From a virus: a stretch of 64,000 nucleotides of DNA. Position 1 is the first letter of the stretch; every line of letters starts with the position of its first letter. A program made the position numbers and the translations under genes. Where the stretch lies: the IMG/VR virus record IMGVR_UViG_3300045988_056969, positions 46,751 to 110,750 of that record; one strand, given 5' to 3'. Of the stretch, positions 309 to 39,915 are shown piece by piece. Under the pieces are notes generated by a model that was not told where the DNA came from, searched no databases, and was given only the letters and a program-made list of their open reading frames with translations.

Positions 309-1589
309 TCATAGTTATAGTAATAAGTACCGTTCCCAAGTTTTTGGATTGTCTAAGGATAAACGTCCATTTGTATTCTATTCGGCTCTAACATAAGGTG
401 TTATTTTAAAATTTATAGGAAATTTGTATCTAAGCAAAGAATAGTGTAATCTCCTATTCTTACTTTTAAAATAGTAGGGTTTATTGTTATACATGAAATG
501 CACTCGAAAATGATTGTCATAATCAATAACCTCTACAATGTGAATATATTTATTATAAAACTTAGATATGTTAACTTCTTTTCCATTCCAGTTAGAGAAT
601 TTCAATCCAGTTAACTCCTCTACCTTTCTCAGCAAGTTCTTAGAGTTGCAAAATTTCATCCATCCAAAATAAGACCTCATTCTTCTATTCAATTCATCTT
701 TATCAATCTTATTCTATTTATATAGATTTATAAGCCTAAACATCCTCATTTTTATAGATTTTCTCAGTAGAACATGAGTATGATAGAATTTATAGCCTAC
801 GAAATTAATACCTCTGCTTTCTACAGGGAATATTTGATAATTAGGCTTCAACTCTAGGTTAAGAACCTGTTTCAAATATAGTTTTATAGATACTAATACA
901 TTTCTCAAATAATTCTTGTCATTACCAAGAATCACAATATCGTCAGCATATCGAAAGTAGTACTTACATTTTAACTCCTCTTTTACCCAGTGGTCAAAAT
1001 ATGTCAGATATAAATTTGCAAAGAATTGTGATAGATAATTTCCAATAGGAACTCCCTTCGCTGAATAAATTATTTCTTTCAACAGTTTTAATAGTTTTTT
1101 ATCCTTTATCTTTCTCTATAACATTTCGTATAAAATGTCGTGAGTTATAGAAGGATAGAATTTTTTTATATCCATTTTCAAGCAATACTTTGTTTCTTCT
1201 GGATGTTTCTATAACACCTTAAACAAATCATACTCTACTTTATGAATACCTCTATTTCGTATAGAGGAATATGTTTGGTCTATAAATATACTAGTCCAAA
1301 TAGGCTCCATAATATTCATTATAGCATGGTGAGTTATTCTATCTGGATAGTATGGAAGTCTAAAGATTAATCTTTCTTTAGGTTCGTATATTATAAAGGT
1401 ACTATATTCAGAGGTTTGATAAATCAAATCCCTTAACTTATCGGATAATTCCTTATTTTCTTTTAATCTATTCTTATCATGCTGCTTGATTCCACATCTA
1501 ATAGACTTATTTCTTCTGGCTTTATCGTCAGCTAGTTCGATGTTATCTTCAGCGTATACTTTCTCGTGCAAATATCCTACACGTTTCAA
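309..1589 (-). CDS. DGR reverse transcriptase; single gene requiring read-through of 4 in-frame TAG codons; real stop TGA at 309-311; start codon uncertain (TTG at 1587-1589)
   Basis: ORF-track fragments 1209-1589, 714-1082 and 378-692 share one frame and are separated only by TAG (plus-strand cta at 1209-1211, 1116-1118, 714-716, 378-380). RT motifs YPDRITHHAIM, FYPSITHDIL, PIGNYLSQFFANLYL (DGR-type I/LGxxxSQ), YADD. Lies next to a TR/VR pair. Confidence 0.8.
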
Positions 1590-1731
1590 TTTTTTATATA
1601 TTTCATCGGAAGCGTTCGAGAATTAACCTACTAACACCCTTCATTCAACACTACGTTATCTTTTGCCTAGAGGCAAGGATATTACTTAGCAAACTAAAAA
1701 AAATAATAAAATGTTTCTAAATATATAATAA

Positions 1732-1827
1732 CTTGACATTGGAATTGGCATTGCTGACGTCATTGTTAGAATTGAAATAGCTGAGACCTGCATTGCTGCC
1801 ATTATTCGCGTTGCTGCCTACTAGCAG
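1732..1827. repeat. DGR template repeat (TR), about 96 bp, non-coding, between RT and target gene
   Basis: Near-identical to 1932-2027 and (as reverse complement) to 29286-29375. Almost all differences fall where TR carries A in the coding sense. Confidence 0.8.
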
Positions 1828-1905
1828 TACTTTTTTGCCAATCAACGGTTTTTAGAAGTAATATCCTACGATTTATCATCTAAATCGATTTTTATATTGT
1901 ATATC

Positions 1906-3723
1906 TTAAGATACTCTATTCAGAGTCCTGAACCCGACATAGGAACCGGCATTGCCGACGCCAGCGCCAGAATAGAAATAGCCGAGACCCGCAAAGCCGC
2001 CATCATTCGCGCCGCCGCCCACCCGCAGCGTGCGAAGCGCTGTGCTGCTTGCGTTGCAGTAATGGTAATCGCAAATATAAGTAGTAGTACTTCCTCCAAC
2101 AGCGGATGGAATTATTTCAGCGGTTTCACCTAAGTCAAATGCCTTAATATAACCATCCGATGCTACTTCGTATCCTGCAACGGTTTTCTCTCCAACTACG
2201 TCTGTAAATTCCGATATGTTAGTAGTTGTATAGACAGTGCTAATCTCATTAGCAGCTGCTCTCACTACAACTACTCCGTCCAGGTTAGTCCAAATGTCTC
2301 CAAACGGATTATCGAATCCTCTCCAGCGAGGTACTTTAAATGTATGAGTTGCTACTGTATTTGTGCCATCTTGAGCTGTACATTCTGGAATAACTAAATC
2401 TTTTACTCCAGTGAAGTTACCAAGTTCATTGCAGTAACCACAAGGTGTAAGTGGATATGTTGCATTATACCCTAACCAACTTGTAGCTGCGTTAGCCCAA
2501 TCTGTAACTCCAGATCCTAAACCTCCTTGATGATATCCATCTGCAATTAACTCTGCATTATATGCAGCCTAAGAATTAAAATTAGCATATTCAATGACAT
2601 AATTCCAGTAGAATATCCATTTGTAATATTCATAGCATAGCAATTCTGAACCAGCATTTGTTGCATATGTTCTCATAGTAGCTCTAGAAATATTAGTTCT
2701 AGGCTTTCCTAAATCACTTCTGAATATATCCTTAGTTTCTAATTCTGTAGTTAGATAATCATCGTAGTTAGCTCTATTTCCTCCACCTCTAAATGCAGTA
2801 GTAGTATTAACTACTGATACAGCTTTTGGAGTTGCGGAGACTGTGGTATCAACTGTACTTCTGTATGCATCTATTAATAGTTCAGGAATTTCTACCCATG
2901 AATCATCAATTTTGACAGTAGAAGTTCTAACCCATCTTTTGTTTCCATCGCTGCCAGATTTTCCATAAAATTTAGGAGTATTAACTCTTACTGTTCCATC
3001 AGTTCCATCTAAGACAGATGGAGTTTCGCCGTCTTCTTTATAAGACCAGTCATCTGGAAACAGATAGTAATTTACTACATCATTGTTTGCTACACAACCT
3101 CTATACGCTGACTGAATAGGAAGAGATTTATGCAACAAAGGATTACCTATTCTAGTAAGTTCCGGAGATGCTACTGTAACATCCCATTCTACTCCATAGG
3201 AATATAAATCCATATTACTATTTAGCTCAGTAACCTACTTATCAAGCTTTTGTTGTGCCTTCTACAATTCTTCCCAAGCCTCATTTAGTGCTGTAAATTG
3301 CTCTTCTAGCTTAGAACTTGAATCTGCCCATTCAGCAGTACCATCTGCTGAGAAAACTAGCATCTATCCAGACGCTCCTCCAGATGGAATATGTTTATTT
3401 CCAGAAGTAGTTGGGTGTACATAATTATTAGCATTATTAGCTATAGTACTTAACTTTTCCTTCTCAGTTTCAGTATAATTGGCTTCAGAAAGTCCCTTTC
3501 CTAACTCCTTATCTACTTTGCCTTCAAGCTCACCCTTAGTAGCTAATTCACTAATATCCTAATGCTCAGTCAAATATCCACTATCATTCTGTAACTAAGA
3601 AGTTTTAGTTGGAATTGCATTAGCTTTGGCATATGTCGTATCTATAACATTTCCAGCACCATCGTAAGTAGCTTTTAAATCGTATGTGGTTTCCCCAACC
3701 TTTATAGATTTGATTGCTGCCAT
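1906..3723 (-). CDS. DGR target protein 1 (tail-fibre/receptor-binding-like, about 605 aa) with C-terminal VR; contains in-frame TAG codons; stop TAA at 1906-1908
   Basis: Frame-0 fragments 1906-2265 and 2569-3213 are joined by TAG (e.g. 2569-2571, 3235-3237, 3262-3264, 3364-3366). ATG at 3721-3723 lies just after an upstream in-frame TAA TAA (3733-3738). N-terminus MAAIKSIKVGETTYDL; Gly/Ala-rich C-terminus covers VR1. Confidence 0.65.
1932..2027. repeat. DGR variable repeat 1 (VR1) in the 3' end of a minus-strand target gene
   Basis: Alignment to TR gives about 25 substitutions, 24 at plus-strand T of TR (coding-sense A to N); one a-to-c change near the end. Confidence 0.8.
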
Positions 3724-3732
3724 ATCATTGTA

Positions 3733-6700
3733 TTATTAAAGTTTCACCAACTACATCGTGATCTATTCTCTCTATGGAAGCAGTTAGGTCCTCAACAGCC
3801 TTCTACAATTCTGCTTTAGTAGCATAGTTCTTGAGAACTTCCTAGTCTACTCCAGAGCCTCCTCCTATACTTCCTCCAACAACTTTTACTGGTTTGGCAG
3901 AACTCTTAAACTGTCCTTCAATATAAATTGTTCCCATATTGTTTAAAATATTAATTGTTCATTTTCTCCATCTACCTCTACACTAGAACCTGGCTATAAA
4001 GCGTCTATCTTTTTCTACAATTCGGCTACGGCCTAGCTAATTAGTTCTTCTACCTCAGCTTTGGTGTAGTATCTCTCTATAAGATATTCGCTCCTAACAT
4101 ATCCAGTATCTTGTAAATCTTTTTCTCCATAGGTGCAATAATAAGTATCTTCTTCAGTCTTACTATTCTCAACTAGGTCATCATAATCAGCTTGTGGTAA
4201 GCATACAAGTTTTGGTACTTCTTCAGTAATAGCAACTTGCTTGCCTCCAGCAAATAGCCTGTTATCTTCTGTGGTAAGTTTAACAGAACTCTCAATAACT
4301 TGCTCAGTTCCTGTTTCCTCAGAAGGTTCTCCAGTTGTTCCCTATTGTACTTCTTTTTCTCCAATTTTCTAAATAGTAATATCAGAAGTTTCTACTGATG
4401 TAGATTTCAAAAGCTCAGTGCTAAATTCTTTAGCAGCAGCAGCCTAATCATCCTGATATTTTTTCTAGGTAACAAATATGAAATCATCATCTCCGGTTTC
4501 AGGAGAGTCTCCCCTTAAACTTTCTTTTGTTACGTAATCTTCGGCTATCTAATCTGATAAATTAGATAATGACTATTGAGTAGCATAAGTAGACTGAGCA
4601 TTTTCCTTAGTAAGAAATTTGTCATCAACCTGCTAAATAGTATAATAAGCCTTAATATCTTCTGTAGTAACGTAGTTTCCAAGTTTTTGCAAACCTTGAA
4701 CTATTTCATCAATCTACTTCTTGGAGTAATAATTTGTAGCAACCCAGGACTGATATTGATTAGTAGTATGATAATTCTAATCCAAATATTCCTTAGTAAT
4801 ATAAACCTTTGCATCATTTGTAACGTCATATACATAGTAATATGTATCAGGCTCTACCGTCCCTTCCTCTACTAACTTTAGATACTCTTCTTCAGTTAAT
4901 GTTACTAAGTTCGGAATATCCGATTCAGTAGCAATCTAATCTTCACCTATAAATAATCCTTCAGACTTAACGTCTACTACTAACTAGCCCTCTCCCTCCA
5001 CTACAGGAGATTTTATCTACCCAACAGTGATGCTTTCTAAGGAGCCATCTCCATCTACCTTAAGAGTTTTATCTAACTCGTCTTGGATAGCCTACTAATC
5101 TTCCTCATATTCTTTCTTTGTAACGAAGACAAAATCATCTCCTTCCATTCCCTCTCCTCTAAGGCTTTCTTTAGTAACGAAAATATCGTTTGTTTCTTCC
5201 TTAGTATAATACTTAGTCAGTGATAGAGCTAAAGAATCGTTAGAGACATAATTAGTAGTTAATTCTTCCAGTGTAGCATAATCTGATAGGCTAGCAATAG
5301 TGTTATCTAAGTCTGTTCTAATCTATACTACAGTAGTATTAAGAGCCTTCTATTTTAATTGCTCTTCTATCTTTTTCCCCCATTCCGCGGATAGGTAAAA
5401 CTAGTTATCGTCTAAGCTATCCTCATATATATAATAATATGTCTCAGCATGAAGATATGGTTTACTTTCATCTATGGGCCTAAAATCGTCTGTAGTATTC
5501 TCAGACCATTCTTTATATTCAGCCTCTGTACAGGTGATTATCTAGATAGATTCATAGGATGCTTTCCATCCTTCCTTGTATTTAATCTTAGACTTATCAA
5601 TCAGCATATAAATATTTCCGTTATCTATGTTAGCAACGGTCATACCTTGATAAGCATACTTCTCTGGAATAGAATAAAGTTCGTCTAAGTTATTAACGAC
5701 TGTTCTATTATCGAGAGGCTTCGGAGTTTCTACGGTTAAAGCGACACCTAAGGTAGCATCACCTGTATATTTAAATGCCATTATTGTGATAGAATAAAGT
5801 TAATTTGATGTGGCAATGCTGAGGAGTAAGTATCTTTCTTAGTCCATACCTTGTAAGTAAATCCATTTATCTACTCGGTAGACGTTTCCCAACCACTTAG
5901 GTCTACATTTAAATATCCAAGTCCTCCATCTACGGTAAATGAATTTAACTATGTGTTACTTCCTGGCAATTTTATAATAGCCTTACCACTTAGTGAAAAT
6001 GTGATAGTTCCAGACGATTGTCCAAAAGGAACTAGCGCCTATTTAATCACACCATCAGTATTACCAGAATACCAAGGATATGTGGCTACTACCTAAGCGG
6101 TAGCGGAAATAGAACCAGCTTCTACTCTCTTATCTGTAACTTCTCCTTTATTATTTATCAAATATTCTCCAGCGGCATAACTCACTGTACCAGAGTGAGT
6201 ATAAGTACCAATAGAATTATATGTATCAGACTCTACAGGAGAACTGTTATAAGTAATAGTTTCTCGTCTGTCAGTTTCTTCTCCAGCATCATTCTTTATA
6301 AATGTAAGTGTAGGAGTTAATAAAGCAGTTCCCACTTCTACTATTTGAGAAGTAAAACTATAATAAAGCTATGGGTATACTAAATCTCTAACTACTGTTG
6401 GAAACAGTAAAGTATCAATAATTTCATTAAAGGGCTTGCCCTTAAGTTTCTCTACTGTAGTCCCTTCAATTACTGTTGAAGTAGTATCATCTGGGAGTTC
6501 CGTCTAATAAGTAGCTATAGTTTCTAAGTTAGTTTGTATATTAGTAATACTTTCAGTATTAGCTTCTACTTTAGTATTTGTCTCTTGTTGTGCTTCCTAA
6601 GTTTTCTATACTTCTTTCTTTGTTTCTTCTAGAGCAGGTTCAAGATTCTTAACATAGATACCTGGAAGGATAATAGAAGAGGTTTCCTCTCCAATCTCCT

Positions 6701-9700
6701 ATTCTATTAAATGAATAGCATTATCTTCCTAAGTAGATAAAATCACCTCTAAGGAATTATTTTCCTTTAGTTCTATAGTTTTGGAATTTTGGAGACTATT
6801 CTTAATCCAATTAAGAATGTTTTTATCAACATCTATATTCTCAATAGCATTGTTCAACTCAACTATAGCTTCATTGATTTTTACTATTTCTTCAGATAGA
6901 TTATTAATTCCTTTTCTATTAGTATCAATTTCTCGCTGTAAATCCTCCTTCAATACAGATATAGAAGTTCTAATATTGCTTATATCGACTTTCAGTTCTT
7001 CTATTGCTTCTGTATTAGATTCATATTCGCTAATAAAGTATAGGGCATAGTCTAGGGCATCCTTCACAGTATTAATGCCTTCTGCAACGTCACTAGTATA
7101 GGTCCATTTTTGTTCTATATACTATACTAGGTCTTTTTGCAGTTCTATGGTTCCACTAATGTTTCCCCACAATAGACTCTACTCATCAGCAATACCTAAG
7201 TTCTTTCTTACTTTAGCTTTTTCTAGTTCTGTCCTATATTCTCCTAAATAGTTATTTCTTAAGAGAGGTATAGGCTCACATTTTATAGGCTTACCCTTTT
7301 TACCACAAGGCACTATATCTGCGTTACTTACCGAAGTGTAAATAGACTGTATCATTCTAGTTTAATAATTGCTATTTAATAAATTCGTGATTATCTAGTC
7401 TTACAGGTAGGTTAATAAAACAAATTAGATTAAGAATATCTTGATAATCTGGTTTATATCCCTTTTTGAGTTTTCTTAGAAAATCCTCATACCTTTTAAT
7501 AGCCTTTCTCTTAAGAGCATCCACAACCTATACGTTTATGTCCATGGTAGTGATTGTCACAGAATCCTCCACAGGTACGGAACATCGCTAGTAATCTTTC
7601 AGCCTCCATGAATTGTTTAAAGCATATTAAATAATCTATAATGTTAAGAGTCATCCATATAAAATCTCGAGCAAATATATCTGCTTCCTAATCTCTAGTT
7701 AGACACTTATTTAGTAAAGCATCAAAGAGTTTCTTACAATAATTAATGTAACACTACTACAAGTTTCCTGTAAAGAAAACATCTACCTTACATTTTTTTA
7801 TAGTAGTTCCTTCTATGTTTCGTTCAAGAACTTCTTTAACTGTACACTCTTCTAGCTTACCTTCTACTTCTTTATATAATTTTTCTCCATCAGTAACATA
7901 GATAGTCTCATAGTATTCCTTGTATTCGTCCGATGAATTTTCATACCATTTCATATTAGGAATAATGATATGGTCTACTACGTAATAACCATCATCCTTG
8001 ACCTTAAACATACACGAGTCTAAGTCTTCTGTATGGTCATTAAGTAGGACATCTATCAGAGTAGCATCGCTTATACTAACTTTGATGATAGTATTCAAGG
8101 TAGCACTCTCACTATACTTATAGGAGTCGTAAGAAGTTACTACCTCTACATCTTCATCAATATACTAGCCATATTCTTTTGAGAAATCTTCTATCAGTAT
8201 TTCCCCATTAATTTGGGTATGTATATCAATACTAAATTCCATATTGCAATAATATTAAGTGTTAGGCCATTGACCGTATTGAGCTGGTGTAGAAAAAGGT
8301 CCCCACTTTCCAGATTGCTTTATACGTCTAGACATAAAAACAGAAGTAAAAGATAAACTAATATCTTGTGGATAGTCAGTCCAGGTATAAGACTATCCAT
8401 CTGGAGTAGGAGGTAATTTATCAATCCCAGAGGAGGGCTGTCCATTCCAGTAGTAGTTATAGTCATAGGCTTTAATAGAGGTTACTTCTGTGGTTTCTCT
8501 CCCGTCAGAATCTATATAGAGAGGATCTCCTTTTTCATTCGTTTTTTGTTTATACTCTATAACTGGTGTTATTCCCTCGGTTCTAGTATATATAGTCTAT
8601 ATAATAGTAGAGACATCACTCGCTACTATTTCATAGATAGTAGTTCCCTATGATTCATCAGCTCCCTAAAAAGTAAATTTAGTTCTTTTCCATATATATG
8701 GATTCTCTTCTGTTGGAAGCTCAAAAGTATCAGACCACTACTTACTTGATAGTTTTATTTCAGATTCATCGGCAGTATTAGCAGGGAGATAATGTATTTT
8801 AATAATAATACTATTAACTGCTTCACTTGAACCGGATAAATCTGATACCTACTTAAATAATTTTTTTAAGTCGTCTTCTACATTTGATTTAGAACCGGAA
8901 GCATTACTTATAATTACTGTCCCATCAGAGATAGGATAAATCTACTACTAATCTTTGTTGTATACAATTGTTCCAGTTGCCATATTAATGTATTTGTCTT
9001 ATTTTGTCATTATATGGATTTCCATCATGAAGCTAAGCCAACTCTATTTCAGTTCTTTTTTCTTCAATATCCATTTGTCTATCTTTATAAGTAGAATCAG
9101 ACTGAGCTTTAAGCCAGTTAACTTTATATTCTAACTGCATCTTCTACTATTCTAATCCCAGTCTCTATTCATCTAAGCTTTCAATCTTTTGCTGAGCTTT
9201 CTATAATTCTTGCTGTAACTACTAAGCCTATTGAGAGGTTTCTTCTAATTTTTCTTGTAGTTGCTGAAGCTGATTATTTTCCTCTTTGCGAACTTGAACA
9301 GCTTTCTTAACCTTATATTTAAGGTCTGTCAGACTCTTAGATGTAAGAGCCTCAAAAATAATATCTGGATCCATCTGTTGACTTTTTACGAACTCTGGAA
9401 TGATTGCTTTTATAGTCTATAGATCTTCCATCACTTCTGAACTAGCAGTAATATGAATATCGTAGTCAGTAACAGTAAAATACTCAGGAAGTGCTGTAAA
9501 TATCTGTTGATATTTATCCCCAAGTATAATAGTTCCAGTTAATCCTTTCTTATAAGTAACTTTAGCCTAATTAAGACTATCTAGTAGTATCTCGCAGGTT
9601 ATTAAATCCATCTGCTAAAAATAGTGCTTAGTTACTATATACGAGTTAGCTACTCCCTACTTAATATTAGTAACTGCATCTCTAGTTTCTATACCGTTAA

Positions 9701-11347
9701 GTCGTTCCCTAAATACTCCAGTTATTGATGATGTAGTTTGTTCTACTGATTGAATAGCTAATTCAATAGCCTATACAGCCTATGCTTTTAAGGTATCATC
9801 AAATCCGTTATATATCTAGTTTGGAGCTTGCTGTCCGTCATTCCTACCTTCTTGGCTTGAGTCTATCCACATGATACCACCTTTTTTATAAGCTAACCAT
9901 TTTTGTACTCGTTCTGGCCATTTAACTCCTAAGTTGGTAGGCAACAGAGACATATCCATAATAACTCCAGCAGTACCACTATTAGCTATTAGATTATCTC
10001 TATAATAGTTTAATAAGTCGTATCTATCCTACAGATGTGCACATTTTAATATAAGAGAATAAGGCTACTAAGAGCGATTTAAGAAATATACTCCATTTAC
10101 CGATAAAGAACAGAAGTTGGGATTATCTTTAGACCTCATAACAGTCTTGTCTAATCCTCTAAGAATATATATCTCTTCTCCTATTCTGATAGTATTGTAT
10201 CTCTACATCACAAAATCATCATCTGTTTCAATCCATTCAACATCATAGACTGGGATTAACTAGAACCTATGAGCACTATATTCATTGTCTGGATAGCCGG
10301 GAATGGTTTCATGATTCTAATCTTCATTTACTACTGTACAAGTATCTCCATATACTCTTCTATAAACAGCAGCTGAATCATCAGCTCGCCATTCATCTTT
10401 TAGTCTTCTTAAATCTTCTCTAGATATTTCTTTGCCATATTTAGCTAAAATCTAACTCTTACTCATCCACTTTCTTACTACAACTCTATATGAGTTCCTT
10501 ACATATGGAGATTCTGGATTTCTATCAACAAATGTATTAAGTGGGTTTAATACCTCTATTTCAATATTAGTTCCAGAAGCCGATGATTTCACTCTAAAGA
10601 ATGTATAACCAGTAATTAATAAGTCTGTTAGTAACTAACGTAACTTAGTAATTAAATCGGTTTCTCTGGATTGCATAATATAATGTACTATATTCTAAGC
10701 TGCAATTTCATATTGAGAAATAAAGGATTGGTCAATATCCTATATAATTTTATCTAACTAAGTCTTTACAGCTTTATCAGTAATATCCTTGCCATCAATA
10801 AACTTAAGAATTGAATTACTTAAATGGTCTTTCAAAAACTTTACTATTCCCTTGGTTATTTCTAGCTATTTTTCTCTTGTTATATTACTGATAGTATCTG
10901 AATCTTTGCAAGAAATTTTCGGAAGTATAGGAGTTCCTAAATATTCTCCAACTAGAGCATCTACGTGTTTCTTTAATAAAGGCGTAAACTCTACCGAAGT
11001 GGGGCTACCTATTCCGAAGTTTTCTTCCAGATAACGGAACTATTCAGGATCTCTTTTACCATTATAATAATTATAAGCTTTCTGTAACTCATACTTATCA
11101 TATACAAGTTCCGCAATAGCCTCGTTTGTCTTGTCTATCAATTCCTTCTCTTTCATAACATAAATTATGTTGTTCTGGAGGAAGTTTAGTAGCGTTATAA
11201 TACTTAACTCTTTGTAACTTCCTACTTCTTAATTCTTCCTTAATAAATGGCAGAAATTCTTCGTCTGGTAAATCTGCTATTATTACTAATGGCATTTCTG
11301 ACCTATCAAAGTTAAAAGAGACTTTATACCCAACTGGGTCTAAACTC
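3733..11347 (-). other. Late virion-structural gene block on the minus strand; genes fragmented by very frequent in-frame TAG; includes coiled-coil fibre-like fragments and a portal-like C-terminal region near 9.0-9.96 kb
   Basis: Only short same-strand ORF fragments (4173-4364, 5542-5781, 6093-6335, 6729-7067, 7757-8098) and none of 60 aa or more between 8.1 and 11.1 kb. Manual translation of 9003-9960 with TAG=Q gives a continuous protein with a portal-like Gln-rich coiled-coil C-terminus. Confidence 0.45.
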
Positions 11348-13711
11348 TCAATATCTAGTCCGCCTATATACTCCATTTTGTACAAGTCCCTCATATATTC
11401 TAGGATCACTTGTTTCAACTCTGTATGGGTCATCATATTCGTTTCTTTGCATATTAAGTTCAGGAGTTTTCTTAGTTGGAATAACTCCAAATCTTTTAAT
11501 TCCTCTCTCGTCGTAATAGTAACCAAAATCTTGGAACTATTCAACTTCTTTCTCCACAAGTACGGGCTGTCTTCCTGATAGCTCTTGGTCTGCTAACTCA
11601 GTCATACCTACAGCGGCTACAATATCATACTTACCCTTATTTTCATCATTATATGCAGTGAACTATTCTAGCATTTCTTCGAACCATATAGTATGGCAAT
11701 AGTCTTCTATAAAGGCGGCTGTTAAATCAGTATGCTATTCGATTATAGTTTTTGTAGCAGGAGTTCCATACTATTTAGTAGTTCCATTTCTAACGTCAGT
11801 TAGAGTAGCTCTTGGGCGCTTCATAAAATAGTTAAGGCATCCTTTTTCTCTAGCCCAAGTAACCATACCCATACGAGTAGCTTCTATATTTATTTTACAA
11901 TTATAATAGCGAGCTAAACACATAGCTATTTTATAGGCTTCTCTGATGTCTCCAGGTCTATCCTTGTACATAGCAACATACTGAGGGTCATTCATACCAA
12001 ACGCACGTTTCTTAATCATTATGCAGAAATCAGACGGGTCTCTGGTTTCCTTAGAAGTCTAATTCGCTCCAATATCAATACCGTCTATACCTGCTACATA
12101 TAAGTCTCGCATCTCTTTATAAACTGGAACTTCAAAATCCTAGCCATTATCTTCTGCCTCCTATCTAAGCTTTTCCATTTGTTCTTTATATAAGTCAGAC
12201 CATATTGGATGCTCTAGAATTTTTACTTTGCCATTGCTGTTAGGAATCCATTTAAAACCATCAATATTATCCTAAGTATGTTTATTATTTTTGTAAAAAT
12301 AATCAATATAACCACATTCGGGTCTTGGGCCAATTTGTTTAAGTCTTATATTAGCTATCTATTCGGCAACTAAAATTTTATTAAACTTATTAACACCTTC
12401 TAGATTAAATGCTTCTTCTGCATTCCAACAACGTTCAGCGCATTTCTTTAGGTAGTCTTCTGGTACAGCTAACAGATTATCTCGCTCCTCCTATAAGAAT
12501 TTCTTATATTCCACAGTATTACATACTCCTCTGTGGTCCATAAATTCTGGATTCAAAGATTGTATAAAGTATGGAATAAAGAATCCACTCTCTATAGTAG
12601 TCCCATCCTAAGTCCAATTATGTCTAAATGGAAGAATCTTATATGCTCTTGGATTATAGTAAATCTTTTTTAAGCCCTCTAGAGGAGCACCCATATCACC
12701 GCCAGTACCTCCAAACAACATTGTTCCACGAGGCATACCTTGAACTTCACAAAGTTCTTGACCTTGTACCACAGCGGTATCAAGTCCAGGCCAGGAACCA
12801 GCTTCATCATATATTAATAAATCTACACGGTCTCCACGAATATTAGATGGTTTAGCTCCGTTAATTGCTACAACCTCAGATTTAAATCCTACGTCTTCAA
12901 ACTAACCATTTATTTTGATTTGTTTACCTGATTTCTTTCTCAAATCCTGGTCAATAAGTCGCAATTTAAAAAATCCTCCTCCAGTACAGGTATTTAAGAA
13001 TGTAAGAGCATTATCAAACTTACTAAAGGTACCCTTAAGGAAGGTATCATTAAAGCAAGTAATCATAACCCTACTTCTTCTAATAACAGAGTACATACGA
13101 GCAGAAAGAGAGGCGTTTATTTCAGAGAATCCAATAGAACGAGCTTTCATTAAAGCTGCGTGCTTGTGTAGCACTCTAGCCATCTATAGATAATGAAAGA
13201 ACATATAATGTGATGCAAAGAATATTGGGAAGTCATTATCAGTACCCTCACCAGAGGCTTTCTGCTAGTCAATAGTAGGTAACTAATAGAAATTTAAGAA
13301 GAAGTAATTATCTCCAGTAATGGTGTATCCATTAACTGTCATTCCATACTTACATCTTCTATATTGCTCTTTCCAAAATTCGTTGTACCGCTTACTATCT
13401 CTAAGGTAGGGACAGTATTGACCAGTTCGTTTATATACTTCCCTAGTCTCGGTAAACCAATCTGGATTAAAGTCCAATCCATGAGTTTCGTCAATAGGTC
13501 TGTATCCAGTTATTTCATAAGATAAGGTAGGGTCAAATACTTCTATTTTATCTCCTATTTTAACATCCCAATAGTCAGAATTTCTGACCCTTTCCTCTCT
13601 TATTTTCTATACTAATTCTCTAGCTTCTTTAGCATCCTCTTTCTATTCTTTTTCTCTTACCTAATCTACAATATTCTATATTTCTTCAGGTAATATCTTT
13701 TTTCTTGGCAT
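11348..13711 (-). CDS. terL: Terminase large subunit (787 codons) with about 25 in-frame TAG codons; stop TGA at 11348-11350
   Basis: Same-frame fragments 11771-12019, 12902-13183 and 13283-13477 are joined by TAG. Walker-B-like VDLLIYDEAGSW; nuclease motif YVAGIDGIDIGAN...DPSDFC; length typical of TerL. Confidence 0.75.
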
Positions 13712-15823
13712 AATTAAAAGTCTCCTGGGTCAAAACCATCCACAGCTCCAGCTCTAACAGTAGATTGTTCAGTAAGTTCTTTCTTAACCTAGTCTTCTAG
13801 TGTTATGAGTTCTTCATGAACTTTGTGAAGAGTAGCCATTTCCTTCATTACTTTTTCAGCCTGGAATACTGGCTTGCCGTTATTATCACGCTCATTTAAA
13901 TCTACAATAGTTTCGAAATAATCAATAAACTAGTCTGCAGCTCTTTTAGCTGCTTCTAGTAATTTTATTGACTTGTTTGAATCTTGTAACGCTCTGTATT
14001 TCCTACAAGCTTCTCTAAATATAGGGTCATTAAATTCTGACTCTGTCAATCCAGAATCACTAATAGCTTCGTCATGTCGTTCATGTTCCGAATACTAACT
14101 GTACGGACTTTTCCAGTCTATAGCTAAATAAATGTAAGATAGTTCTCTAGTAGCTCTATCCTTTTCTGCAGATTTATCCCTCTAGATTAAAGCCTTAAAT
14201 TCCTTAACTAGTAATATCTCTGGTTCATTTATTTCTAGCTATTTAGTTAAAGTGTTATAGTTAAATACATTCATAATCATTAATCATTATCATACACATT
14301 AGATAATCTTATTATTTCTTTTTCATTTTGGAACCGCACTTATTGACTTTCATTTTTGAGCCACAAGCGTCTTTCTTAGCATATTGTTTTCTGTCAGGAA
14401 CCCATTTTCCTCCCTGGAAATTACCCTTATGTCCTTTATTGGCCATAGTTTCCTAATCATTGTATTTATTGATTGATATAGAATCTCTTGAGGCTTCGTC
14501 TCTAGCAGATTTCATATCTTTCTTATACTAAGCTCTTCCTGCCTTAAATTTATCAACTTCATTAGCTTTCTTAGTAACTTTAGTTCCTTTTTGTGCTTTC
14601 TGGCAAGCTTTACAGATTCTACCGCCTTGCTTAAAATATACAAGCTCTTCTCCTTCTGGACATACTCCTTTTAGCTTCTTATAATACTCAAGCTTAGCTC
14701 CAAGCCTAGCCATTACTCCTCCTTGCATTTTCTGCATAAATTCCTGATACTTAGCTTTAATGCCGTCTTCACCTAATTGTTCAGCATAAGCTTGTAAATC
14801 CTGTTCAGACTATATCTGAACTCCCTATGACTGCGCATCCTATATTAAATATGCCACAAACGCTTTTTGTAATTCTTGTTGATTATTCATTGTTCCTCCT
14901 TGTTGAAATTTAGTTGTATGTCCCGGAGATAATGTTAATGGTTTAGCTTCTGATTTTCTAGAATTCCATACATCTCCAAGATAATTAAATAATCTCTATA
15001 ACCCCCTATGTATCCCAAAATCTCCTCCTTGTACTGTATTTCCCATAGTATATCTAATGGTAGAAGGTTGTTTAGGCTTACTTGAAGGCTACTCGGCTCT
15101 TGTCTATTCACTAGCTGGCTAACTGCCTCTTGTAATAGTTGGTATTCCTCTACCCCAAGTAGTTCCTTTTGTTGTAGCAATTAGGTCTGGAGCTTCTATA
15201 CTAATCTAAGTATCTGACTAAGGAATCTGAATGGTAGAAGGTTGTTTAGGCTTACTTGAAGGCTGTCCTAAGTCTGTAGTATATACAGAATTTCCCCACA
15301 TAAACTGTTTTAGTCCTCTCTCTCTAGCAGCCCTAAAAGCTGTCTTAAAATCTTTAACACCTCTTAAATCATCCTAAGCTATTTCAGCAGTAGGAAGAGG
15401 TTCTAATCTTGTGGGTAATGAAGGCATTTCTGGAGCATCAAAATATGCCTCTTGTAACTTAGGCATTTTCTATTGTGCGGTTCTTCTAATAATGTCTGGA
15501 TTAGTTGCCCAAGTCTAATGCAACTACCTCAAGGTTCTCTCATCTAAGTCCGCATCTCCGTAAATAATTTTGATATTACGCATCAATTCAGGGTCAAACT
15601 ACACTTTAGCCATTACTTTTCTACTTTAATTAAATCCTTAGTATTAAACACTGCTTCCTACATAAGTCCGGAATCAGTAAACCATCTACATCTTAATCCT
15701 CGTAATCCTTGGTTATCTTTAAATAAAGCTGCTTCTCTTCTTAGAACAAGCATAACTGGAGAATGCATTACTTTACACTACCGTAAAGTAACACAATCCC
15801 CAGGCTTAAAATAAACTTTTTCA
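13712..15823 (-). other. Additional late genes with in-frame TAG (fragments 14528-14737 zinc-ribbon CxxC..CxxC; 14935-15180)
   Basis: Short minus-strand ORF fragments in several frames; boundaries not resolved. Confidence 0.3.
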
Positions 15824-16434: not shown

Positions 16435-16773
16435 TTACCATTTACATAAATCACAATGTTCATCTTCTATTCTAGTTTTGTTCTCTAGTATACAACCACA
16501 CTCCTCACATACTTCTCCAAATGAAGTCTGTAATTTATGAGGACAAGTATTACAAATATTTAATCTTGTGGTTGCTAAATCTTGATTAATTCCAAATATA
16601 TGGAAATATATACTCTTCAATATTACTAAAGGTTTAGTAAATATTGCTTTAATCCATTTCTTTGACATCTTTTCAGTAGGTTCTTGAGTCATAAGTATAT
16701 AAGCCTTAGTAGGGTTAGCCATTACTGGAGTCCCATATAGTAATAAATTATTTACCATTTCTTCGCAGGACAA
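16435..16773 (-). CDS. Cys-rich small protein (CNTCPH..CEECGC..HCDLCKW), paralog of 16752-16967
   Basis: ORF track; shares its C-terminal Cys motifs with the neighbour; TAA stop. Confidence 0.5.
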   Translation of the reverse strand: MSCEEMVNNLLLYGTPVMANPTKAYILMTQEPTEKMSKKWIKAIFTKPLVILKSIYFHIFGINQDLATTRLNICNTCPHKLQTSFGEVCEECGCILENKTRIEDEHCDLCKW

Positions 16774-20287: not shown

Positions 20288-20304
20288 AACTATTAATTTT
20301 GGCG

Positions 20305-20376
20305 TTGCCCTACTAGGATTCGAACCCAGACTAAATGATTTAGAGTCATCTGTGCTGACCATTACACCATAGGGCA
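20305..20376 (-). tRNA. Suppressor tRNA, anticodon CTA (reads UAG); clean cloverleaf; probably Gln-derived
   Basis: Minus-strand TGCCCTA-T-G-GTGT-AATGGTCA-GCAC-A-GATGA-CTCTAAA-TCATT-TAGT-CTGGG-TTCGAAT-CCTAG-TAGGGCA-A. All stems pair. The D-arm is identical to the tRNA-Gln(TTG)-like gene at 34198. Confidence 0.8.
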
Positions 20377-21240: not shown

Positions 21241-21687
21241 ATGGCAACAGAAAGAAACAGCCGAGAAAAGGGTGAAGCACTCGCAGCGGCACAGGGTACA
21301 CAAATCAAGGATTTTGCAGCAGCAGGAAAAACTAATTTACCACCTACGGAACTTGCAAACGTGGAAGTAGGGGAAGAGTTCACAATTCCCAATGACTACA
21401 AAATCTATGAACGTGAATTTAACGGTAACAAATATCAGTTTGTTGTTACCGAAGAAGGAAAATTCTTTTACGTTTCATGGCTCACACGTGGAGCAAAGCC
21501 CAAAGACGGGGGAGATTTTGTAAGACCTAAAGGTACAGTAATCGAAAAATTTTACAAAAATCCTAATGCCTCTTACGATGAGGCATTTAAGGGCATCACT
21601 GGGAAACCTATGATAGTAAAAGAATTTACCAAAGTTGAAGGTGAAAACTTTACCACAAAGGTGGCAACCATCGACTTTGTAAAATAG
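21241..21687 (+). CDS. Early hypothetical protein, paralog of 22121-22579; ends with a genuine TAG stop
   Basis: ORF track; shared motif LTRGA.P.DG.DFVRP.GTV; TAG 21685-21687 followed by a terminator hairpin. Confidence 0.6.
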   Translation: MATERNSREKGEALAAAQGTQIKDFAAAGKTNLPPTELANVEVGEEFTIPNDYKIYEREFNGNKYQFVVTEEGKFFYVSWLTRGAKPKDGGDFVRPKGTVIEKFYKNPNASYDEAFKGITGKPMIVKEFTKVEGENFTTKVATIDFVK

Positions 21688-22120: not shown

Positions 22121-22579
22121 ATGGCAACTGAAAAGAATGCTAGACAGATTAGTGAAGAAAGAGCTGCTGCTCAAGGTGAAGTATTCAACTCTTTCAAAGA
22201 TGCAGGTGTAGGGGCTGTTCGCTCTCTTGAATTGAACAATATCAATGAAGGAGAAACGGTGACGATTCCTAAAGACTTTAAAATCTTCTTAATGCCTATT
22301 AGCGGAACAACCAACAAAGCTGCCAAAGTTATTACTGAAGAAGGTAAGGACTTCTGGATTGGCTGCTTGACTCGTGGCGCTCGTCCTGCTGACGGTAGTG
22401 ATTTTGTACGTCCAACTGGTACTGTTGTTGATGCTGTTCAGAAGCACGCTACAATGGATGAAGCTTTCAAGGAAGAGCTTGCCGGTAAGAAGATTAAGTT
22501 TGAAAAGAAAACCGTTGTGGTAGCCGAGTTCAATGGCGAAACAAGAAACGTCAACGTGTGGACGCTTAACTTCGCTTAA
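22121..22579 (+). CDS. Early hypothetical protein, paralog of 21241-21687
   Basis: ORF track; TAA stop. Confidence 0.6.
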   Translation: MATEKNARQISEERAAAQGEVFNSFKDAGVGAVRSLELNNINEGETVTIPKDFKIFLMPISGTTNKAAKVITEEGKDFWIGCLTRGARPADGSDFVRPTGTVVDAVQKHATMDEAFKEELAGKKIKFEKKTVVVAEFNGETRNVNVWTLNFA

Positions 22580-23343
22580 ACGAAGTTTTGTAACTCTTAA
22601 AGGCAAAATGTATAAGGATTGGTTAGTCACCGGTCCTTATACTCGATACAAAGTGAAAAACGGTGAGAATTATCACTTAAAAAGTGGATATTTTCTTATC
22701 AGAAATCACTTAGTATTGAGATATATTCCTGGATAGAAGTTTACACTGTAACTGTTATTAGTATTTTCAATGTTCAACGCGAAAATTCGGTAAAGGAAGG
22801 AGAAATTGTCCACTAAAAAGACCCTCAATTTCCGGACTTTTTCCGATTTTCAAAAAATCCGCCAGAGTAGGAGTTATATAGCTCACACTCTCTATGGACA
22901 TTATTTAGTATTTAGCCTATAAAAAGGCAACAAAAAGCGAGGCTACGCAGAAGAGCCTAACACCAAAAATAACTGCTACAAATTCTATGTGCATATTCGC
23001 AAACTTGAGCACTATAGGATTTAGGTTGAGCTACAAGGATTGGTCACTTATAGCAATATTATGAGTACTGCTGATATGTCAGTGACCGTACATATCACAT
23101 ATAAAATATGTTATACAATTATGTTAGAAGTTGCCAGGTCTAAGAAGCCTGATTAAAATCTCTAGATAGTAAGAGAGAACCTCATAAGGGTTCATTTTCC
23201 ATCTCGAACCTATTCGCAAGTTTATAGACTAGCTATCTATAAATTTAGTGATGGAATACCAACGAAGTTGGTGTTCCCGCTTTGCGAACGTCCTCAGCAT
23301 AGAAAACTGAGAAATAATCTCCTATCTTATTCTAGATAGGATT

Positions 23344-23413
23344 TCCCTACTAGTATAATGGATTGCGTCTCCCTTTAAAGGAGAAGATTCTGGTTCAAGT
23401 CCAGAGTAGGGAT
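23344..23413 (+). tRNA. tRNA with anticodon TTA (UUA; would read UAA, and UAG by wobble); ochre-suppressor-like
   Basis: TCCCTAC/GTAGGGA acceptor; anticodon arm TCTCC-CTTTAAA-GGAGA; T-arm TCTGG-TTCAAGT-CCAGA. Confidence 0.6.
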
Positions 23414-23448
23414 CTTCATAGTTATATTATTTGTGATTATTACTTTTC

Positions 23449-23474
23449 AGCTACAGTTCGTGAGAATAGTAGCT
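23449..23474 (+). other. Conserved stem-loop motif, copy a (AGCTAC-AGTTCGTGAGAATA-GTAGCT)
   Basis: The same loop sequence recurs at 34165-34190 and 43205-43230 with different, compensatory stems. Confidence 0.5.
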
Positions 23475-23814
23475 TTAACTAGAATATTAATTTAAAACTA
23501 TATAGATATGATAATCATAATCATTTTATACATAATAGCTATCATAGGCTATAAATGTAAGAGTGCAGAAGTATGCCTGTTTTTCGGACTTTTAGCTACA
23601 ATACTACTTTGTTTGAGAATAGGCTCAGAAATAGGACATGCAATATAATTAAAATAAAGTAAAAATGAAAAAGATTAAAACTTATCCAAATCATTTAGAG
23701 ATTATAACCTCAGTCTTTATAAAGATTTTGATTTAGAAGGCATCAGAACAGTTACAGAAACATTTGTGAATGGAAAATTAGCAAGAAAAGATTTAACGAA
23801 TTAAAAAGAAAACC

Positions 23815-24048
23815 ATGAGAAAAAGATTCAAAGCTGCGAGAATAGCATCTTCAGACAACTACGAATTGTCTAGAAGAATACATTCTCAGTATTTAAAGAG
23901 ATGGCACAATGCTAACATCGAGGTAATCACTGAAATTACCACATCATTAGTAATCAAAGAACAAAAATACATAAGAGTATTTGGAGAATTAATTCCGATT
24001 TCGGAAGAGGAATTGAGAATCCATAACACTCTGATAGTTGAGAACTAA
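23815..24048 (+). CDS. Hypothetical protein
   Basis: ORF track. Confidence 0.4.
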   Translation: MRKRFKAARIASSDNYELSRRIHSQYLKRWHNANIEVITEITTSLVIKEQKYIRVFGELIPISEEELRIHNTLIVEN

Positions 24049-24569: not shown

Positions 24570-25529
24570 ATGAAGACAATACTTACTCACATAGGAAAGA
24601 TTTATGTTGATACAGAACATAAACTTGAATTTCTAACCGTAGGAGACTATGGAAAAGAGAACAATATCAAAGCTAATTTCCTAGGATTAACTAAGGAGAT
24701 TAACGGAGTAGCTAATACTGAAGTTGACCTTAGTAAGAAGTGGGTTGCAACTATTTCAACTCAGAAAGGCTGTCCTATGCATTGTAAATTCTGTGATGTT
24801 CCCAAGTTTGGATTCTATGGAAATGCTTCTATAGAAGATATGGATAGACAAATCCGAACTATTATAGAAGGCGAAAGTGTCAGAGAAACAGACAGGTTTA
24901 ATGTACACTTTGCTAGAATGGGAGAACCAACATGGAATGATAATGTATTAGCATTTGGACTTGCTCTCAGAGGTGTGGTTAAGTCTGCAGGGTTAATAGC
25001 TAAAACTGTTCATCCAGTAGTTTCCACGATGCTTCCGAAAGCAAATAATAAGCTTGGAAACTTCTTACAGGTTTGGTGTAGCATAAAAAATGAGTTCTAC
25101 AATGGAGAAGCAGGCTTGCAGTTTTCAATCAATTCTACAGACGATGAACAGAGAAATGAGCTGTTTGACTCTAAGAGTTTGTCACTAGCACAAATTTCCC
25201 GGTTGGCTGACGAGTTACCAATGCCAGTAGGCAGAAAGTATACTCTAAATTTTCCAGTAACCTCACAAACTATTCTCGATGCGAAGGAATTGTCAAAGCT
25301 ATTTGATAGGGAGAAATTTATTGTTAAAATCACTCCTATACATGAAACAGCTTCTGCTATAGAGAATGGTTTCCAGGTAACTGGATACTCTGATTATGAC
25401 GTTTATCGTCGCTTTGAACAACCTTTATTGAAAGAAGGTTGGGATGTTATAGTGTTTGTTCCATCTAAGGAGGAAGATTCTGACCGAATTACTTGTGGGA
25501 ACGCACTAATCTCTGAAGAGAAGATTTAA
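24570..25529 (+). CDS. Radical-SAM RNA methyltransferase of the RlmN/Cfr family
   Basis: STQKGCPMHCKFCDV (RlmN GCALECKFC), ARMGEPTWN (MGMGEPLLN), INSTDDEQR (LHAPNDEIR), C-terminal ITCGNAL (AACGQL). Confidence 0.7.
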   Translation: MKTILTHIGKIYVDTEHKLEFLTVGDYGKENNIKANFLGLTKEINGVANTEVDLSKKWVATISTQKGCPMHCKFCDVPKFGFYGNASIEDMDRQIRTIIEGESVRETDRFNVHFARMGEPTWNDNVLAFGLALRGVVKSAGLIAKTVHPVVSTMLPKANNKLGNFLQVWCSIKNEFYNGEAGLQFSINSTDDEQRNELFDSKSLSLAQISRLADELPMPVGRKYTLNFPVTSQTILDAKELSKLFDREKFIVKITPIHETASAIENGFQVTGYSDYDVYRRFEQPLLKEGWDVIVFVPSKEEDSDRITCGNALISEEKI

Positions 25530-27733: not shown

Positions 27734-27817
27734 GGGAGATTATTCCGTAGATGGTAGCGGGGCGCACTGTAAATGCGCTGCCTAACGGCTCGGGGTGTTC
27801 GACTCACTCATCTCCCA
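27734..27817 (+). tRNA. tRNA-Tyr-like (anticodon GTA) with a long variable arm, lying inside the tRNA-interrupting insertion
   Basis: GGGAGAT/ATCTCCC acceptor; anticodon arm GCGCA-CTGTAAA-TGCGC; T-arm GGGTG-TTCGACT-CACTC; weak D-stem. Confidence 0.5.
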
Positions 27818-27825
27818 CTACTAAT

Positions 27826-27872
27826 AAATCTGCTCTCTTTTGAGACTGGAGGTTCGAGTCCTCCCAATCCCA
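27826..27872 (+). tRNA. 3' half (exon 2) of the split tRNA: TCTGC anticodon-stem strand, variable hairpin CTCTC-ttt-GAGA, T-arm GGAGG-TTCGAGT-CCTCC, acceptor CAATCCC, discriminator A
   Basis: Complementary to exon 1 at 27266-27300. Confidence 0.5.
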
Positions 27873-39559: not shown

Positions 39560-39632
39560 TGGGCCGTTAGCTCAAATGGCTAGAGCGCTGGTTTTGCACA
39601 CCGGAAGATAGGGTTCGAGTCCCTGCGTGTCC
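39560..39632 (+). tRNA. tRNA-Ala (anticodon TGC) with G3-U70, but acceptor positions 5-7 are not complementary
   Basis: GGGCCGT vs CGTGTCC; D GCTC/GAGC; anticodon arm CTGGT-TTTGCAC-ACCGG; T-arm TAGGG-TTCGAGT-CCCTG. Confidence 0.5.
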
Positions 39633-39841
39633 ACAAACTTTATTTAAAAAATTATGAAAGTATATGTAGTTGTAGTAAATTATCACCAGCTAATGCTCCT
39701 CAAAATTATGAAACTGATTGCCAAATCTTCTTAGACAAGAAACAGGCAGAGAAGTATAAAGAGGCTAAGGAAAAAGAGTTTCCTATTAGATGGGGAGGAG
39801 AGTATAATCATTGTAAACTAATTAAAAAGCATTTGTAATAT

Positions 39842-39915
39842 CGCGGGATGATAGCAGAGGTAGCTAGTCAGGCTCATAACCTGAAGGTCGTCGGTTCGAA
39901 TCCGAGTGGGGGATC
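39842..39915 (+). tRNA. fMet-like tRNA (anticodon CAT), close to E. coli initiator up to the T-loop, but the 3' acceptor strand TGGGGGA is not complementary to 5' CGCGGGA
   Basis: D TAGC/GCTA; anticodon arm TCAGG-CTCATAA-CCTGA; AGGTC-GTCGG-TTCGAAT-CCGAG, then TGGGGGATC. Confidence 0.4.

Follow-up and report, generated by a model that had tools for sequence, protein, structure and literature searches.

A tRNA with the anticodon UUA carries a uridine at position 34 and reads UAA and, by U:G wobble, UAG. The classical suppressors of the glutamine type are E. coli supE (glnV, CUA), E. coli supB (glnU, UUA) and the ochre suppressor form of the T4 tRNA-Gln. The two ochre suppressors among them, supB and the T4 tRNA-Gln, decode UAG as well as UAA, but only weakly, and TAA continues to terminate translation in their presence. 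Ciliates that use nuclear code 6 have a tRNA-Gln(UUA) together with a tRNA-Gln(CUA), read both UAA and UAG as sense and possess an altered release factor.

Several suppressor tRNAs have also been described in phages of the gut. In the Lak megaphages, a TTA suppressor is present in 51 of 51 genomes and a CTA suppressor in 38 of 51, with no sign of TAA recoding (Crisci et al., 2021; PMC8346664). For the alpha-group crAss-like genome OKSC01000115, a point mutation was reported to have turned a tRNA-Gln(TTG) into a Sup(TTA), again with no recoding (Yutin et al., 2021; PMC7886860). The same article and its supplement contain six TTA suppressors in other gut contigs, and among the 27 suppressors that the supplement lists for the zeta group, 26 are CTA, one is TCA and none is TTA (PMC7886860). 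TAA suppressors have further been tabulated by genetic code (Borges et al.; bioRxiv 10.1101/2021.08.26.457843), and phAss-1 was found to carry three tRNA-SUP-CTA genes per genome (PMC10607447). The Lak and alpha-group precedents establish that a UUA suppressor in a genome without TAA recoding is already known and that it is unexplained.

The locus described here is a tRNA gene with the anticodon UUA in the window, that is, the whole stretch of 64,000 nucleotides that was analysed. It resembles the Lak case in that a gut phage with TAG-to-Gln recoding carries UUA and CUA tRNAs, the former of unexplained function, and does not recode TAA. The difference is that the TTA suppressor is universal in Lak phages, whereas in the present crAss-like lineage a core tRNA(CUA) is universal and UUA appears as one allele of a second gene, which is dispensable. 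With OKSC01000115, the locus shares a UUA anticodon that is a single anticodon change away in a tRNA of a crAss-like phage in which TAA is not reassigned. In that instance, however, position 36 of a sense tRNA-Gln was changed in one genome with the standard code, whereas here the difference concerns position 34 of a nonsense tRNA in a TAG-recoded phage and is widespread; the direction of the C/U change is not fixed by the alleles. In phAss-1, too, more than one suppressor tRNA gene serves TAG-rich structural genes, but all of them are CUA. The anticodon series CUG/UUG, CUA and UUA is that of the classical glutamine suppressors. These suppressors arose by laboratory selection from sense tRNAs that are essential or of phage origin, whereas the present allele is a naturally circulating form of a dedicated suppressor gene and lacks the acceptor elements used by the E. 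coli GlnRS. The pair of UUA and CUA tRNAs also recalls the ciliates, where both carry glutamine, but here TAA is the main stop codon. A series of CUG, CUA, UUA and decayed forms at one slot, coupled to a RAGATH-14-like RNA, has no report in the literature searched, in which RAGATH-14 is not mentioned by name.

Genome setting and the use of TAG

The window has a G+C content of 35%, and sister contigs measure 183-194 kb. The source appears to be a large crAss-like phage of the gut with a genome of ~185 kb, which probably belongs to the "zeta" type of PMC7886860. Its terminase shares 43-44% identity with unannotated records of gut phages and 25-28% with the terminases of Crassvirales. One binned contig bears the label "Bacteroides sp.," which is weak evidence on the host. 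The early genes on the plus strand include those for a DnaB-like helicase, a Toprim primase and a SNF2-type helicase, and the UUA tRNA is encoded on the same strand, alongside these early replication genes and a tRNA array. The late genes form a block on the minus strand (Table 1), at the end of which a reverse transcriptase and its target make up a diversity-generating retroelement.

In-frame TAG codons are numerous in the late genes, with 4-28 per gene and a total of 124 in the late block of the window, and there are none in 20 early and six middle genes. TAG accounts for 124 of the 247 glutamine-type codons of the late genes. In codon alignments with 51 related loci, the TAG codons of the window are paired mainly with CAA (628) and CAG (317), the next most frequent partner being GAA (75). 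Consequently, TAG means glutamine in this phage. The restriction of the TAG load to late genes, the alignment with glutamine codons and the presence of a phage-encoded tRNA(CUA) together correspond to recoding of the code-15 type.

The core tRNA(CUA) heads the minus-strand block of middle and late genes and is kept in all close and more distant relatives (28 or more loci). It is 82-86% identical to the annotated tRNA-Gln of the crAss-like phages cr7_1, cr124_1, cr60_1 and cr53_1 and, judged by its sequence, clearly descends from a tRNA-Gln. In contig 113697 (L027, 4352-5424(-); L109, 1885-2957), the core tRNA is split at about positions 35/36, within the anticodon loop, by an insert of ~1 kb that encodes a 272-aa HNH endonuclease-like ORF and probably represents a mobile intron, though it had no match among the intron families of Rfam at E<0.1. 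This contig was considered as a natural knock-out of the core tRNA and set aside, as the gene is split by the insert and not lost. tRNA genes of this lineage may often bear introns. A second tRNA-Tyr(GTA) of the window was called by ARAGORN at 27734-27818 and matched by Rfam at 27736-27872(+) (137 nt, 34 bits), and in locus L147 a tRNA-Tyr is apparently interrupted after the anticodon by an ORF-carrying insert. Two further tRNA matches were obtained with Rfam and not called by ARAGORN, one at 39561-39633(+) (39.5 bits) with a TGC (Ala)-like loop in its sequence and a partial one at 39851-39906(+) (32.9 bits).

Table 1. Positions of the features discussed in the text; coordinates refer to the window unless a locus is named.
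Feature	Position	Strand	Basis or remark
TAG-recoded late block, presumed client of the suppressor tRNAs	315..15625	-	ORF maps, homology, codon counts
DGR reverse transcriptase	315-1622	-	4 in-frame TAG
DGR target, variable C-terminal region	1906 to about 3723-3732	-	6 in-frame TAG
Portal	8985-11156	-	Late block
TerL	11348-13711	-	Homology to Crassvirales
Core amber-suppressor tRNA(CUA)	20304..20376	-	ARAGORN; Rfam 66.3 bits
Two paralogous ORFs, ~150 aa, MATE[RK]N...AAAQG...	21241-21687, 22121-22579	+	Upstream of the RAGATH-14-like RNA
RAGATH-14-like structured RNA	23126..23323	+	Rfam RF03145, model positions 1-190, E=1.9e-27
A+T-rich hairpin TCCTATCTTATTCTAGATAGGA, separating the tRNA from the RAGATH-14-like RNA	23320..23341	+	Sequence, inverted repeat
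Accessory suppressor tRNA, allele type A, 70 nt	23344..23413	+	ARAGORN, Rfam, energy fold, covariation, orthologues
Radical-SAM-like protein, CxxxCxxC	24570-25529	+	phrog_24834 (function not assigned); Pfam Radical_SAM below threshold
2172-aa ORF ending in TAA (UUA carriers)	L152 11825-18343; L170 11828-18349
2172-aa ORF ending in TGA (CUA carriers)	L159 11832-18350; L161 14614-21138

Structure and surroundings of the UUA tRNA

A first-pass annotation had described a well-formed cloverleaf with the anticodon UUA, and this description is borne out by three prediction methods as well as by compensatory changes among the alleles (see below). ARAGORN calls a tRNA with the anticodon TTA at 23344-23414(+), and Rfam RF00005 matches the gene over its full length (model positions 1-71) with 57.3 bits, the gathering threshold being 29. 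In the Infernal alignment, the anticodon loop CUUUAAA occupies 23373-23379 and the anticodon itself 23375-23377. The loop has seven nucleotides (C32 U33 U34 U35 A36 A37 A38), including the expected U33 and a purine at position 37. The minimum-free-energy fold contains the same anticodon hairpin as the Infernal alignment (z = -2.66). UUA is thereby placed at positions 34-36 by all three methods, and the rest of the tRNA is canonical; its T loop reads TTCAAGT. An alternative fold with a sense anticodon, which the first-pass annotation had named as an outcome that would speak against it, was found by none of the three. In its sequence, the A36-A37-A38 context of the loop is that of tRNAs reading codons that start with U. 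CCA is not encoded, as in most tRNAs of the window. A blastn search with 22800-24000 gave no match in the phage collection. The identical anticodon arm is present in 10 contigs of IMG/VR, in 8 independent contigs from human-gut metagenomes and in 2 binned ones, and the gene is therefore not a chance match.

The identity set of the E. coli GlnRS consists of G2-C71, G3-C70 and G73. The accessory tRNA does not carry this set, as its first pair U1-A72 is followed by C2-G71 and C3-G70 and its discriminator is U73; the charging rules of the host may differ. Its nearest neighbours among 176 tRNAs are ambiguous, with an Arg-UCU tRNA at 66% and CUA/Gln tRNAs at 60-65% identity, and the phage collection contained no full-length or close relative. 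The first pair, U1-A72, is found in 13 of 13 accessory alleles, though it is not exclusive to glutamine tRNAs. Nevertheless, the accessory UUA tRNA most likely carries glutamine, because an orthologue with the anticodon CUG exists (in a single contig, 050979), because the U1-A72 pair is invariant and because the tRNA must not scramble a late proteome in which TAG stands for glutamine.

The structured RNA upstream of the tRNA scores 145.1 bits, which is under the gathering threshold of 149.1, and covers the full length of the RAGATH-14 model with a shortened 3' hairpin. In the window, it ends 20 nt upstream of the tRNA. Every sister locus has a homologous element at a distance of 22-78 nt on the upstream side of the accessory tRNA, and this element is retained even in the loci with a truncated (L013) or deleted (L016) tRNA. 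The structured RNA and the accessory tRNA form a conserved module and may be transcribed or processed as one unit. The A+T-rich hairpin between them differs in length among the aligned relatives by a 6-nt indel. On the other side of the tRNA, an alignment of L001-L009 revealed that the sequence diverges fully from the discriminator base onward (23413/23414) in L002-L004 and L006, all of which have A73. The alternative downstream flank, which starts with CTACTAAGTTGCAG...GACCATAATGGGTATGCCCTGAGAC, recurs in several contigs. This abrupt change indicates that the 3' end of the tRNA is a recombination boundary within a mosaic accessory region. The two paralogous ORFs upstream of the RAGATH-14-like RNA have no Pfam or PHROG match, and the second of them retrieves from IMG/VR only genomes of type A, the UUA lineage, so that the entire segment can be regarded as accessory and mosaic. 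The stop codon of the first ORF is TAG, and it is closely followed by another TAG and a TGA. Downstream, the radical-SAM-like gene adjoins the tRNA array; it occurs in more than 270 IMG/VR contigs, many of them without tRNA genes nearby.

Alleles of the accessory gene and the decoding of UAG

For comparison, two sets of loci were taken, one surrounding the neighbouring radical-SAM-like gene and the other the terminase gene. In the sister loci, a tRNA of 70-72 nt is found at the same position and in the same orientation, 2.4-3.4 kb from the core tRNA(CUA). This slot is occupied by UUA in 21 contigs including the window (10 IMG/VR, 8 ENA human-gut and 2 binned), by CUA in 20 contigs and by CUG (Gln) in contig 050979 (L028/L131), where it stands on a type B backbone; these counts are by contig and not phylogenetically independent, and some records may share assemblies across collections. 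In 41 of the 48 slots, the anticodon is a nonsense one (CUA or UUA) and is presented in a canonical loop of 7 nt. The UUA allele with an unchanged anticodon loop was recovered from at least nine independent assemblies and in three sequence variants. In six contigs the slot is altered, decayed or deleted. Contig 058615 (L023/L112) carries an 8-nt anticodon loop, CTGCAGAA, in which ARAGORN reads "gcag," possibly a four-base anticodon. Contigs 067910 and 049479 (L017/L105 and L104) have a 6-nt loop, TTTAAA, and the loop TTTAAAA of contig 3300010163_000004 (L020) formally contains the anticodon UAA (Leu). In contig 3300029391_000001 (L013/L094), a relic is left that has lost the D arm and the anticodon loop, shows a CGCT tetraloop and has kept the acceptor and T arms. 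Finally, the tRNA is fully deleted in contig 069050 (L016), where the RAGATH-like RNA is still there.

Three tRNA backbones can be distinguished. Type A, to which the window belongs, always carries UUA and was never seen with CUA, whereas types B and C occur with CUA. Types A and B have the acceptor, anticodon and T arms in common and differ in the D arm, and type C is distinguished by compensatory changes in three stems. The window allele has U73, and A73 is found in all other alleles. Across 13 distinct alleles, 6 of the 21 stem pairs change on both sides; 96.3% of the cells of the alignment are paired, compared with 43-52% when the partners are slid, and the observed covariation score was reached by none of 500 shuffles. 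The UUA gene is thus a real tRNA gene, orthologous to the CUA and CUG alleles. Nonsense anticodons persist across backbones that have undergone compensatory change, which argues for selection on decoding. The accessory gene family is therefore a structurally constrained tRNA with a nearly always nonsense anticodon, and the UUA tRNA of the window represents the form with U34 of a second amber-suppressor gene, which is dispensable. A wider search of IMG/VR for the tRNA family and for modules of RAGATH-14 and tRNA returned the same lineage only.

Among the options listed in the first-pass annotation was a second amber reader, and this is the one that we favour, given the CUA and CUG orthologues on a covarying backbone and the heavy load of TAG codons for glutamine in the late genes. 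At slightly better than even confidence, we regard the UUA tRNA as a redundant amber reader of the glutamine type that decodes UAG by U:G wobble. With half of the glutamine codons of the late genes being TAG, the demand for decoding would be considerable, and this heavy late use could explain that the phage carries a spare accessory gene in addition to the core tRNA(CUA). The spare gene is placed at the head of the plus-strand block, directly behind the RAGATH-14-like RNA. Its U34, which stands in place of the C34 of sister phages, would read UAG through the U:G wobble pair and UAA through U:A.

The suggestion that the tRNA is non-functional keeps some probability for the UUA allele, given the six contigs with decayed or deleted versions of the slot, but the UUA loop is intact in about 21 contigs. 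In a broader form, this explanation states that decoding is irrelevant, either because the gene is a redundant copy drifting to loss or because its fold is retained mainly for the processing or the structure of the RAGATH-14 transcript, and that UUA is a tolerated neutral variant. RNase P cleavage at the 5' end of the tRNA could, for example, define the 3' end of the upstream RNA, and the constant proximity of the two elements is in agreement with such a role. Redundancy is likewise compatible with the presence of the core tRNA(CUA) in every genome, with the loops of contigs 067910, 049479, 058615 and 3300010163_000004, which are unable to decode normally, and with the relic that retains only the acceptor and T arms. 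However, contig 069050 has the RAGATH-like RNA without any tRNA, and under free drift of the anticodon one would not expect nonsense anticodons in 7-nt loops at 41 of 48 slots, on backbones that differ by compensatory changes in the anticodon stem. In addition, the type A D loop (GG) is the most canonical among all alleles, and altered alleles are not significantly commoner on the UUA backbone (Fisher p = 0.19-0.67). A gene without a decoding role is therefore considered unlikely, though not negligibly so.

Termination at TAA and the role of the UUA allele

The first-pass annotation had pointed out that many genes, including those at 16435, 16752 and 16970 and the DGR target, end at TAA, and the same is true of the window as a whole. 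TAA terminates 61 (73%) of its 84 non-overlapping ORFs and TGA the other 23. Early ORFs of at least 100 aa (n=40) end in TAA in 31 cases, in TGA in seven and in TAG in two. No in-frame TAA was found in the ten full-length late genes of the window or, in UUA carriers, in the late genes of the adjoining 10 kb, the inspection covering about 74 kb of the ~185 kb genome (~40%). The TAA stops of the window align to TAA in close relatives, whichever allele these carry, and apparent pairs of TAA with a sense codon are confined to nucleotide alignments of ~70% identity with distant relatives that have no accessory tRNA. TAA is thus an ordinary stop codon, and no sign of its reassignment was seen in this part of the genome.

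A read-through regulator, another role that had been considered for the tRNA, finds no support in the genes of the window. A back-up stop within two codons is present in 28% of the genes ending in TAA, compared with 15-20% in other frames and 35% of the genes ending in TGA, so that no TAA-specific back-up signal emerges. The median extension past TAA is nine codons, and no conserved read-through extensions were found, including those downstream of late-gene stops for which the first-pass annotation had proposed a check. The sole same-frame pair of late genes, 8255-8983 into 7511-8242, is out of frame or separated by a second TAA in relatives. Just past the left end of the window, UUA carriers have an uninterrupted late ORF of 2172 aa, in which about 40 TAG codons stand in frame. 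Its stop codon in two UUA and two CUA carriers (Table 1) follows a pattern opposite to that of ochre-suppression avoidance; a shift of stops to TGA in UUA carriers was not seen, and this one gene shows the reverse. Genes for a release factor, an aminoacyl-tRNA synthetase or a tRNA-modification enzyme were found neither near the tRNA nor among the ten largest early ORFs.

These observations are in tension with the redundant amber reader favoured above, as U34 should read UAA and yet 73% of the ORFs end in TAA. To our knowledge, no modification of U34 abolishes the reading of A, and the proposal that U34 modification restricts the reading of the tRNA is therefore unlikely. It also runs counter to the wobble rules and to the classical ochre suppressors, which decode both codons. 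Since U34 pairs with both UAG and UAA, a tRNA that helps to decode TAG would unavoidably compete with release factors at TAA. TAA would still terminate because termination is assumed to outcompete the suppressor, as it does with weak ochre suppressors. The tolerated leak at TAA would then give rise to a low level of short C-terminal extensions, with a median of about nine codons. We infer that the tRNA is expressed, charged with glutamine, able to read UAG by wobble and of low efficiency at UAA.

A host-directed ochre suppressor, which would be produced from the early strand and cause read-through of host TAA stops, thereby disturbing the proteome or defence proteins, is an improbable alternative. 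U34 necessarily reads UAA; the gene is located on the plus strand, where the early replication genes and the array of tRNAs are also found, and the UUA allele is stably kept in many gut samples. An anti-defence function has also been raised for phage suppressors in general (PMC7886860, PMC12386605). However, 31 of the 40 early ORFs of the phage itself end in TAA without TAA-specific back-up stops, and about half of the sister phages have CUA at the slot. A shade less probable again is the scenario that the U34 allele was positively selected as an early glutamine decoder of both UAA and UAG, made together with the RAGATH-14 RNA, which would either sabotage host termination or represent an intermediate toward a ciliate-like code with UAR=Gln. 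For incipient TAA reassignment (toward UAR=Gln), or programmed TAA read-through of genes beyond the part examined, the suppressor "pre-emergence" proposed for the alpha-group TTG-to-TTA tRNA-Gln (PMC7886860) and the inspected span of about 74 of ~185 kb leave some room, but the lack of in-frame TAA in late genes, the prevalence of TAA stops and their alignment with TAA in close relatives, the same-frame pair that is not conserved and a large survey without TAA recoding in jumbo phages (PMC13037316) make either very improbable.

For genome annotation, it follows that a UUA tRNA alone should not be read as a sign that TAA is recoded. A defined genomic context is gained for RAGATH-14, an orphan motif of Rfam, which here directly precedes the suppressor tRNA of a crAss-like phage. 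If the dual reading of UAA and UAG were true, the near-isogenic phages with CUA and UUA would amount to a natural experiment in genetic-code change, and if it served as sabotage, the target would be the most common stop codon of the host. Closely related gut phages differ at the anticodon of one accessory tRNA, which is CUG, CUA, UUA or broken, and the question of why UUA suppressors exist without TAA recoding thereby becomes directly testable. The series opens the questions of whether U34 contributes anything to amber decoding, what level of read-through at UAA is tolerated by a phage and whether host termination is a target.
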